Assembly: GCF_003334785.1 (NCBI RefSeq)
Contig: NZ_QOWV01000022.1
DNA length: 54,561 bases
Reading direction: 5' to 3' (one strand)
Origin: Escherichia coli
Lineage (GTDB): Bacteria; Pseudomonadota; Gammaproteobacteria; Enterobacterales; Enterobacteriaceae
The notes under the pieces were generated by a model, which had not been told where the DNA came from, made no database searches, and worked only from the letters and a program-made list of their open reading frames with translations. A program made the position numbers and the translations under genes. Positions 43,465 to 44,066 of this stretch are shown in pieces (the first letter of the stretch is position 1; each line of letters starts with the position of its first letter).

Positions 43465-43810
43465 GGTGATGCTGCCAACTTACTGATTTAGTGTATGATG
43501 GTGTTTTTGAGGTGCTCCAGTGGCTTCTGTTTCTATCAGCTGTCCCTCCCGTTCAGCTACTGACGGGGTGGTGCGTAACGGCAAAAGCACTGCCGGACAT
43601 CAGCGCTATCTCTGCTCTCACTGCCGTAAAACATGGCAACTGCAGTTCACTTACACCGCTTCTCAACCCGGTACGCACCAGAAAATCATTGATATGGCCA
43701 TGAATGGCGTTGGATGCCGGGCTACTGCCCGCATTATGGGCGTTGGCCTCAACACGATTTTACGTCACTTAAAAAACTCAGGCCGCAGTCGGTAACCTCG
43801 CGCATACAGC
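43465..43810 (+). mobile_element. IS1, left end with intact insA, truncated before insB
   Basis: Starts with the IS1 terminal inverted repeat GGTGATGCTGCCAACTTACTGATTTAGTGTATGATGGTG; only about 340 bp of the element is present. Confidence 0.85.
43520..43795 (+). CDS. insA: IS1 InsA protein
   Basis: 91 aa, [40 protein letters not shown]... matches IS1 InsA as recalled. Confidence 0.9.
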
Positions 43811-43820
43811 CGGGCAGTGA

Positions 43821-44066
43821 CGTCATCGTCTGCGCGGAAACTGCTGGGATAACAGCCCAATGGAGCGCTTCTTCAGGAGTCTGAAGAACGAATGGGTGCC
43901 GGCGACGGGCTATGTAAGCTTCAGCGATGCAGCTCACGCAATAACGGACTATATCGTTGGATATTACAGCGCACTAAGACCGCACGAATATAATGGTGGG
44001 TTACCGCCAAACGAATCAGAAAACCGATACTGGAAAAACTCTAACGCGGTGGCCAGTTTTTGTTGA
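43821..44066 (+). pseudogene. C-terminal remnant of an IS3-family transposase (OrfB)
   Basis: In-frame translation ..[35 protein letters not shown].. matches the C-terminal end of IS3-family integrase cores (compare CWDNAVAESFFSSLK in the element at 53721..54329); no catalytic N-terminal part. Confidence 0.6.

Follow-up and report, generated by a model that had tools for sequence, protein, structure and literature searches.

The IS debris between 43465 and 44074 in the window (the whole 54,561-nt stretch of Escherichia coli DNA analysed here) is very probably a scar left by IS elements that decayed in several steps and lost their function, in the distal cargo part of an E. coli pipolin, with the joint between its two IS pieces produced by a deletion between short direct repeats. 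The feature is an ordinary decay scar that is already annotated: in junction-carrying genomes, RefSeq marks both IS pieces as pseudogenes—the IS1 piece as 'IS1-like element transposase' and the IS3-family piece as 'integrase core domain-containing protein'. Its significance beyond annotation hygiene is small, there being no new element, mechanism, or gene; what is added here is the base-pair anatomy of one transposase-rich seam in a pipolin cargo arm. The first-pass annotation had described the site as a recombination scar between cargo modules. The scar is there and the seam is real, but the joint reads as a microhomology deletion rather than as an IS-mediated event.

Judged by its site and gene content, the island, which begins at tRNA-Leu and lies between pgsA and yecA, is a pipolin in which the polymerase gene is still a candidate. 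The features that place it, and those that lead up to the debris, are listed below.

18744-18830: tRNA-Leu, start of the island
19864-21111 and 29675-30811: tyrosine recombinases
26057-28720, minus strand: 887-aa ORF, candidate family-B polymerase
42678-43433, plus strand: M48/YgjP-like metallopeptidase gene, closing the type I RM module (from the ORF and RefSeq product names)
43434-43464: 31-bp spacer, present only together with the IS1 piece in the sampled genomes

The tRNA-Leu pgsA/yecA site, the recombinases, and DUF2787 were all found; the DUF2787 orthologue is annotated in strain MB56, and the leuZ 3′ repeat lies before yecA in loci L001 and L004. Signals for the 887-aa ORF are weak (Pfam DNA_pol_B_2, E 0.0097; PHROG 'DNA polymerase', 6e-6), and its orthologue in 98.7%-identical DNA is named 'DNA polymerase' in RefSeq. 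The 15-kb pipolin core (18831-34100) is covered to at least 80% in 241 of 5,426 genomes. An Rfam scan of the whole window returned three tRNAs only, none of them in the IS debris.

The debris itself, from the left end of IS1 to the start of the first defence gene, resolves into the following parts.

43465-43840, plus strand: IS1 remnant, nt 1-376 of the element, 98.9% identical over 376 nt to complete IS1A
43465-43487: IS1 IRL, GGTGATGCTGCCAACTTACTGAT, 23 bp, intact
43472-43499: promoter-like site inside the IS1 IRL
43520-43795: insA, full length, 91 codons
43771-43777: A6C frameshift motif of IS1, AAAAAAC
43836-43840: GGAAA microhomology at the joint, where IS1 nt 372-376 are joined to ISEc52-like nt 1011-1015
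43836-44066: C-terminal 75 codons of orfB (orfB′), ending ASFC*
43841-44074, plus strand: ISEc52-like remnant, nt 1016-1249 (the last 234 nt), 100% identical to the full-length element of strain 1217KP
44048-44074: 27-bp IRR of the ISEc52-like piece, intact, ending ...CACTTCA (GACCACTTCA)
44075-44087, plus strand: 13 bp separating the IS3 IRR from the first ATG of DUF262a, with an AGGAGG ribosome-binding site at 44081-44086

Alignment to IS1 and IS3-family references, a check proposed with the first-pass annotation, bears out the reading of these pieces as an IS1 left end (98.9%, with the complete IS1A copy at L001 12153-12920 as reference) and an IS3-family remnant (100% to the 1217KP element), and it places the breakpoints at IS1 nt 376 and ISEc52-like nt 1016. 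The left end of IS1 had been called intact together with insA. The IRL is intact and insA is full length, but codon 11 of insA (43550-43552) is changed from TGT to CGT, replacing a cysteine of the first CxxC of the zinc ribbon with arginine (Cys11Arg). IS1 had also been said to stop at about 43800, which is in fact the insA stop; 45 nt of the element are retained past it, and the breakpoint lies 45 bp further on, at 43836-43840. Pfam Zn_ribbon_InsA and HTH_Tnp_IS1 are matched on the identical 91-aa insA product in L008. InsA is probably inactive, given Cys11Arg. This substitution is common to the window, L001, L002, L004, L008, and plasmid pEC28 and is not present in MB56; its shared possession argues for one ancestral IS1 copy. 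It also makes a useful lineage marker for insA.

The insB catalytic region and the IRR are absent from the IS1 remnant, the element ending at nt 376 of 768. Membership of the IS1 family requires both terminal repeats, of which the IRL only is present, and an InsAB′ transposase (insA, the A6C −1 frameshift, and insB′), here incomplete because insB′ is lost beyond 43840. As for an 8-9 bp duplication, the window copy has no right end to supply one, and the MB56 copy at the same site, IS1 nt 1-767, has flanks that do not match each other. The window piece is a dead remnant and not a transposable copy.

With copies named ISEc52 in RefSeq ('IS3-like element ISEc52 family transposase') the IS3-family piece shares 98% identity, with IS911-labelled copies about 93%, and a full-length 1,249-bp relative survives at the same site in other strains. 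The C-terminal end of OrfB is readable, as first reported, in a frame that runs from 43842. The orfB′ remnant matches a PHROG transposase at 2.2e-26, over the C-terminal profile positions 426-495 of 580 only, and it carries an E-x7-K arrangement that we take to be part of the DDE signature of the IS3 family. Of the TG...CA repeats expected at both ends of such an element the window has the IRR only, the IRL being kept in L002; the orfA/orfB pair, −1 frameshift, and DD(35)E triad are not complete, both D residues being absent; identity to a named reference element was found. An in-frame InsAB′-OrfB chimera was considered and rejected. The insB′ frame reads foreign sequence past 43840 and stops at 43884, and since it differs from the orfB′ frame, there is no fusion protein. 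The debris encodes no transposase.

How the two pieces came to be joined can be read from strain 1217KP (L002), which shares with the window the same M48 gene, 31-bp spacer, and IS1 start. There, IS1 nt 1-541 runs straight into the left terminus (TGAAGTGG..., TGAAGTGGTTTACTG...) of an ISEc52-like element that is intact (1,249 bp) and that borders the DUF262 gene on its right in precisely the way seen in the window. The window corresponds to this arrangement minus L002 10826-12005, and the 1,180 bp lost consist of IS1 nt 377-541 and ISEc52-like nt 1-1015. Two BLAST segments against 1217KP overlap by 13 nt (43828-43840), which locates the microhomology, and the wider repeat at the joint—GTCTGCGCGGAAA (IS1 nt 364-376) against GTCGGCGTGGAAA (ISEc52-like nt 1003-1015)—agrees at 11 of 13 positions, the last five perfectly. 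The precursor-type arrangement, with IS1 nt 541 next to an intact element, is kept in strains such as 1217KP and MB56. Comparison shows both the deletion and its direction; a stub could not have grown back into a complete element with its terminal repeat, so the direction is unambiguous. Between L002 and the window there are 19 mismatches in the M48 gene and spacer, and no sampled genome is the literal ancestor, so the precursor is reconstructed from arrangement and not from lineage. The sequence signature suggests RecA-independent slippage or illegitimate recombination at the microhomology; a perfect match of 5 bp is short, and slippage is its usual reading.

It is extremely improbable, and at odds with the alignment, that the joint was instead made directly by transposition, whether of IS1 into the IS3-family element or the reverse. 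A precursor without the deletion exists, and at the window joint the terminus of neither element is present (IS1 nt 376 of 768; ISEc52-like nt 1016 of 1,249), with no inverted repeat and no duplication, only the 5 bp of shared GGAAA. The joint is internal to both elements, which argues that no transposase made it. Nested IS insertions are, however, common, and the precursor joint between IS1 nt 541 and the IRL does have the form of one made by a transposase.

A chimeric join of two repeats, introduced during sequencing or assembly, is a reading with practically no probability left to it. IS copies often break or mis-join assemblies, and some draft contigs do end inside the debris (L012-L014), but this reading is refuted by the recurrence of the identical junction in closed genomes that come from many different hosts and laboratories: with the 101 bp around the joint as query, coverage was found in 172 of 5,426 complete E. 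coli genomes. In the same way, the precursor joint (IS1 nt 541 to the IRL) was found in at least 22 genomes as a single piece and in 42 at most, the run from M48 through the spacer to the IS1 IRL in 197, and the IS3-IRR/DUF262 junction region in 255.

The deletion between short repeats would then be one episode in the decay beside an older junction. The IRR-TACCGCAGGAGGCATGATG junction is invariant across every context examined, and the window shares the IRR-TACCGCAGGAGG junction without any change with L002, with L015 as a second chromosomal locus, and with five plasmids, namely pEC28 of E. coli and four from Klebsiella; because it is invariant, the insertion of the IS3 element upstream of DUF262 would be the oldest event. 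No IRR-free DUF262 was found among the sampled plasmids and the second chromosomal locus (more distant homologues exist at 42% and 29% identity), and a search for an IS-free copy of the DUF262 module found none, the exact-protein context look-up returning the same island only.

What differs between contexts is the length of the ISEc52-like stub. It measures 234 nt in the window, the full 1,249 nt in L002 and MB56, and 487 nt on an IncR plasmid (L021), where it stands behind a group II intron. On pEC28-AU-EG1 and Klebsiella IncFIB plasmids (L018, L019, L020, L022), a 317-nt stub stands behind an IS110-family fragment and IS1 nt 1-240, and at the different chromosomal locus L015, the DUF262 gene has a 103-nt stub beside it and, immediately before that, a second and separate stub of 432 nt. 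The plasmid variant retains ISEc52-like nt 933-1015, which are missing from the window, so the window and plasmid variants are independent derivatives, neither arising from the other. On these comparisons, the IS3 stub is a product of repeated and independent truncation.

In MB56 (L017), IS1 nt 1-767 lies at the exact position given by M48 plus 31 bp, and the IS1 at this site must therefore once have been complete. The same strain holds a second M48′-IS1(1-544)-ISEc52-like copy, with a fimbrial operon between the copies: over L017 23956-30873, the M48 3′ end, spacer, and IS1 are duplicated, and a tRNA fragment, the yehD-type fimbrial operon, and an inverted IS1 right-end piece lie between. Through this duplication, an IS1-associated rearrangement, non-defence cargo entered the pipolin.

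Four steps lie behind the window arrangement. In the first, putatively the oldest, an ISEc52-like element inserted 13 bp upstream of the first DUF262 gene; in the second, as the complete IS1 of MB56 shows, IS1 entered 31 bp past the M48 gene, with which the type I RM module closes. The ISEc52-like IRL then became joined to IS1 nt 541, giving the precursor seen in 1217KP, putatively through an adjacent deletion mediated by the IS3 element or through recombination with a second copy inserted in IS1. Finally, in the window lineage, the 1,180-bp deletion from GTCTGCGCGGAAA to GTCGGCGTGGAAA took out both IS1 nt 377-541 and nt 1-1015 of the ISEc52-like element. The two readings of the third step are favoured on the ground that the IRR-DUF262 junction came first. 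Had the ISEc52-like element simply inserted into IS1 at nt 541, a reciprocal junction (IRR, TAT, and IS1 nt 542 onward) would be expected, but no single-piece match to it was found in the 5,426 complete E. coli genomes, and this route was set aside. The flanks of the precursor ISEc52-like element are TAT and TAC, which is not a clean 3-bp duplication.

To the left of the debris, the M48 stop codon (43431-43433) is the homology boundary, with other variants diverging at 43432/43433 or 43426. The M48 3′ region is matched in 365 genomes, 197 of which continue into the 31-bp spacer and IS1; the non-IS1 M48 genomes, among the matches listed, all diverge at the M48 stop codon. The comparison with strains lacking the downstream module that was proposed at first reading thus returns the M48 stop codon as the point of divergence, as in AH21, where M48 is followed by a different DUF262 gene, a PD-(D/E)XK nuclease, IS5, and MZA. 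These divergences identify the debris site as a real module seam at the population level. A jump in GC content immediately downstream, also reported at first, is borne out in direction (0.494 in the 1 kb upstream against 0.565 in the 1 kb downstream), but it is modest, and the value falls to 0.519 in DUF262b and 0.443 in hhe.

The two sides of the seam differ in their divergence. The hsdR gene (39397-42681) differs from the window by 2.2-3.7% in L001, L002, L009, L017, and L018 and is near-identical to it in L007, L008, L010, and L011. From the IS3 stub to hhe (43841-53500), all loci that hold the stretch, Klebsiella-type plasmids included, differ from the window by 0-0.4%. The right-hand module has spread recently, and the RM module is older or recombining. 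Within the latter, a 620-aa ORF (37465-39327) lies between the YecA-like gene and hsdR; it is named 'cold shock domain-containing protein' by RefSeq in L001, has no PADLOC or NCBIfam match, and is missing from the otherwise collinear RM modules of 1217KP, MB56, and pEC28.

The stretch common to the window and plasmid pEC28-AU-EG1 runs from 33836 to 53872, beginning at hsdM and ending 187 nt inside the right-hand IS3 element; its left neighbour on the plasmid is an IS1. Since the plasmid-shared unit takes in everything between those limits, the debris not only marks a seam but also lies within an exchanged stretch of ~20 kb. Klebsiella IncF plasmids hold an independent decay variant of the same site. 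What passes between Klebsiella IncF plasmids and E. coli pipolins is a defence stretch of ~20 kb, made up of type I RM, the DUF262 pair, and Hhe, with the IS debris aboard, and the stub variants—window, precursor, and plasmid type—are handy markers for tracing this exchange.

Downstream of the debris lie the remaining defence genes and the right-hand end of the window.

44088/44091-45542, plus strand: DUF262a (GmrSD_N), HEC-06/SspE-like
45535-47577, plus strand: DUF262b (GmrSD_N), HEC-06/SspE-like, overlapping DUF262a
47764-53500, plus strand: hhe, a DUF4011 helicase anti-phage gene (PADLOC Hhe, profile positions 1-1803 of 1911)
53686-54471, minus strand: right-hand IS3-family element (NF033516), its IRR end facing hhe
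54472-54561, plus strand: end of ISCro1 (IS66 family), GTAAGCG..., which cuts the right-hand IS3 element at 54471/54472

The DUF262 pair matches PADLOC HEC-06 at 7.9e-30 and 1.3e-33, with Pfam GmrSD_N and GmrSD_C on identical products. In the window, hhe is frameshifted by an extra G at 53169 (TTGAGGTCAAG against TTGAGTCAAG in L001), its ORF stopping at 53181, and an intact 1,911-aa hhe is present in the other loci compared; the window copy is a pseudogene unless the extra G is a sequencing error. A 54-codon ORF (VTTVGQRERATQQRVVRFFIEELGYRYLGDW..., 53523-53684) follows hhe and is cut off by the right-hand IS3 element. It gives a weak hint of Pfam HSDR_N (E 0.0073) and irrelevant weak hits only against NCBIfam; possibly it represents the 5′ end of a restriction or helicase gene that is now lost.

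An IS3-family element had been reported at the end of the window, and one is indeed present from 53686 on the minus strand (NF033516, E 4.6e-80). Its terminal repeat is TGGACTGACCCCAC..., and its comparison with the ISEc52-like element yields short, marginal nucleotide matches only, the terminal repeats being different. The element is complete in TUM1881 (1,231 bp) and LR-71-1, and in many strains that appear to lack it, L001 and L002 among them, it is a 66-bp stub left by deletion between 8-bp CGTGGTGT repeats. The stub (loci concerned: L001 30376-30448 and L004 14377-15617) carries the element's other terminal repeat, and with one of the 8-bp repeats in the flank and one inside the element, it forms a second microhomology deletion scar in the same island. 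The flanks of the right-hand element, GTTG and TTAC, are not a clean duplication. At its right edge the block thus stops at an IS3-family terminus that lacks a clean target duplication and has a possibly truncated ORF next to it. The junction of ISCro1 with this element occurs in none of the 5,426 complete E. coli genomes and is for that reason taken to be private to the source strain.

The block from 44.1 to 53.7 kb had been described as IS-bounded, which holds to the extent that its right edge, too, is an IS3-family end; the unit shared with plasmids is larger, however, and it is very unlikely that the DUF262-DUF262-hhe block is, or once was, a composite transposon made of the two flanking IS3-family elements. 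The flanking elements are unrelated at the nucleotide level, with terminal repeats TGAAGTGGT... and TGGACTGACCCC..., respectively. In the window, the left one is missing both its IRL and its transposase; of the right one, L001 and L002 keep the 66-bp stub only. The plasmid-shared stretch takes in the RM module, and on other plasmids, the right edge is formed by IS1 or a Tn3-like element. Set against this, the IRR ends of both elements face the block, the ISEc52-like IRR always travels with the DUF262 pair, and neither outer flank has a clean duplication. No instance was seen of the block at unrelated sites with the same two complete elements and a target duplication. The composite transposon was rejected on its unrelated flanking IS, its missing left outer end, and its lack of a duplication.

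A further explanation is that the debris has been kept because it is functional, either as a promoter for the defence operon (the IRR −35 TTGACC with a flanking −10, or the IS1 IRL) or through regulation of that operon by InsA. This is unlikely. Every variant has kept the IRR-DUF262 junction along with 103 nt or more of the IS3 right end, but such retention of the IRR is expected passively, as only 13 bp separate it from the start codon. Promoter-like sites occur at 43472-43499 and 44063-44092, no terminator-like site was found in 43350-44200, and the upstream fragments are all co-oriented with the DUF262 genes; the consensus scans are, however, near expectation, with two sites against a shuffle mean of 0.9. 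InsA carries Cys11Arg in its zinc ribbon. The hybrid outward promoter of the IS3 IRR (TTGACC-18-CATGAT, 44063-44092) was rejected because its −10, CATGAT at 44087-44092, overlaps the start codon, so that an IRR-derived transcript would start inside the gene and could not serve it at full length; the N terminus of DUF262a aligns to HEC-06 profiles from residue 2-4. The IS3 element would have displaced the native promoter of DUF262-DUF262-hhe, leaving these genes to putative passive read-through from the hsd operon or from the IS1 IRL promoter.

A related reading, also to be regarded as doubtful, holds that the debris is not neutral: the operon would depend on read-through only, the independent truncations would have been selected to tune or restore expression, and the IS1 and IS3 fragments would serve as portable homology. 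The stubs counted for such selection are those of 234, 317, and 487 nt and that of 103 nt with its separate 432-nt stub upstream. If this were true, portable homology would swap the defence block between Klebsiella IncF plasmids and E. coli pipolins. The reading preferred here is that of a non-functional decay scar.

Set beside known systems, the window scar is made of familiar parts. With IS1 (IS1A-type, E. coli), it shares the left 376 nt at 98.9%, the 23-bp IRL, insA, and the A6C site; it differs in being truncated at nt 376, in having neither the catalytic part of InsB nor the IRR, and in carrying Cys11Arg. With ISEc52/IS911, it shares the last 234 nt, an IRR ending ...CA, and E-x7-K in the OrfB C terminus, whereas the IRL, orfA, the frameshift site, and both catalytic aspartates are absent. 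As in RecA-independent short-direct-repeat deletions, the end-points fall in a direct repeat (5 bp perfect, 11/13 over the wider repeat) of which one copy is retained; for the window, this sequence signature is what suggests the putative mechanism.

Enterobacterial pipolins integrate at tRNA-Leu between pgsA and yecA (Mateo-Caceres et al., Nucleic Acids Res 2024, PMC11551731), and their defence cargo (type I RM, hhe, HEC-06, and mza) is 'usually found near transposases' and exchanged with plasmids (PMC11551731). The island in the window occupies the same site and has the same core, consisting of a DNA polymerase B candidate, two tyrosine recombinases, and DUF2787. Its cargo of type I RM, HEC-06-like genes, and hhe is likewise the same as that of the pipolins described (PMC11551731), from which it differs in nothing essential.
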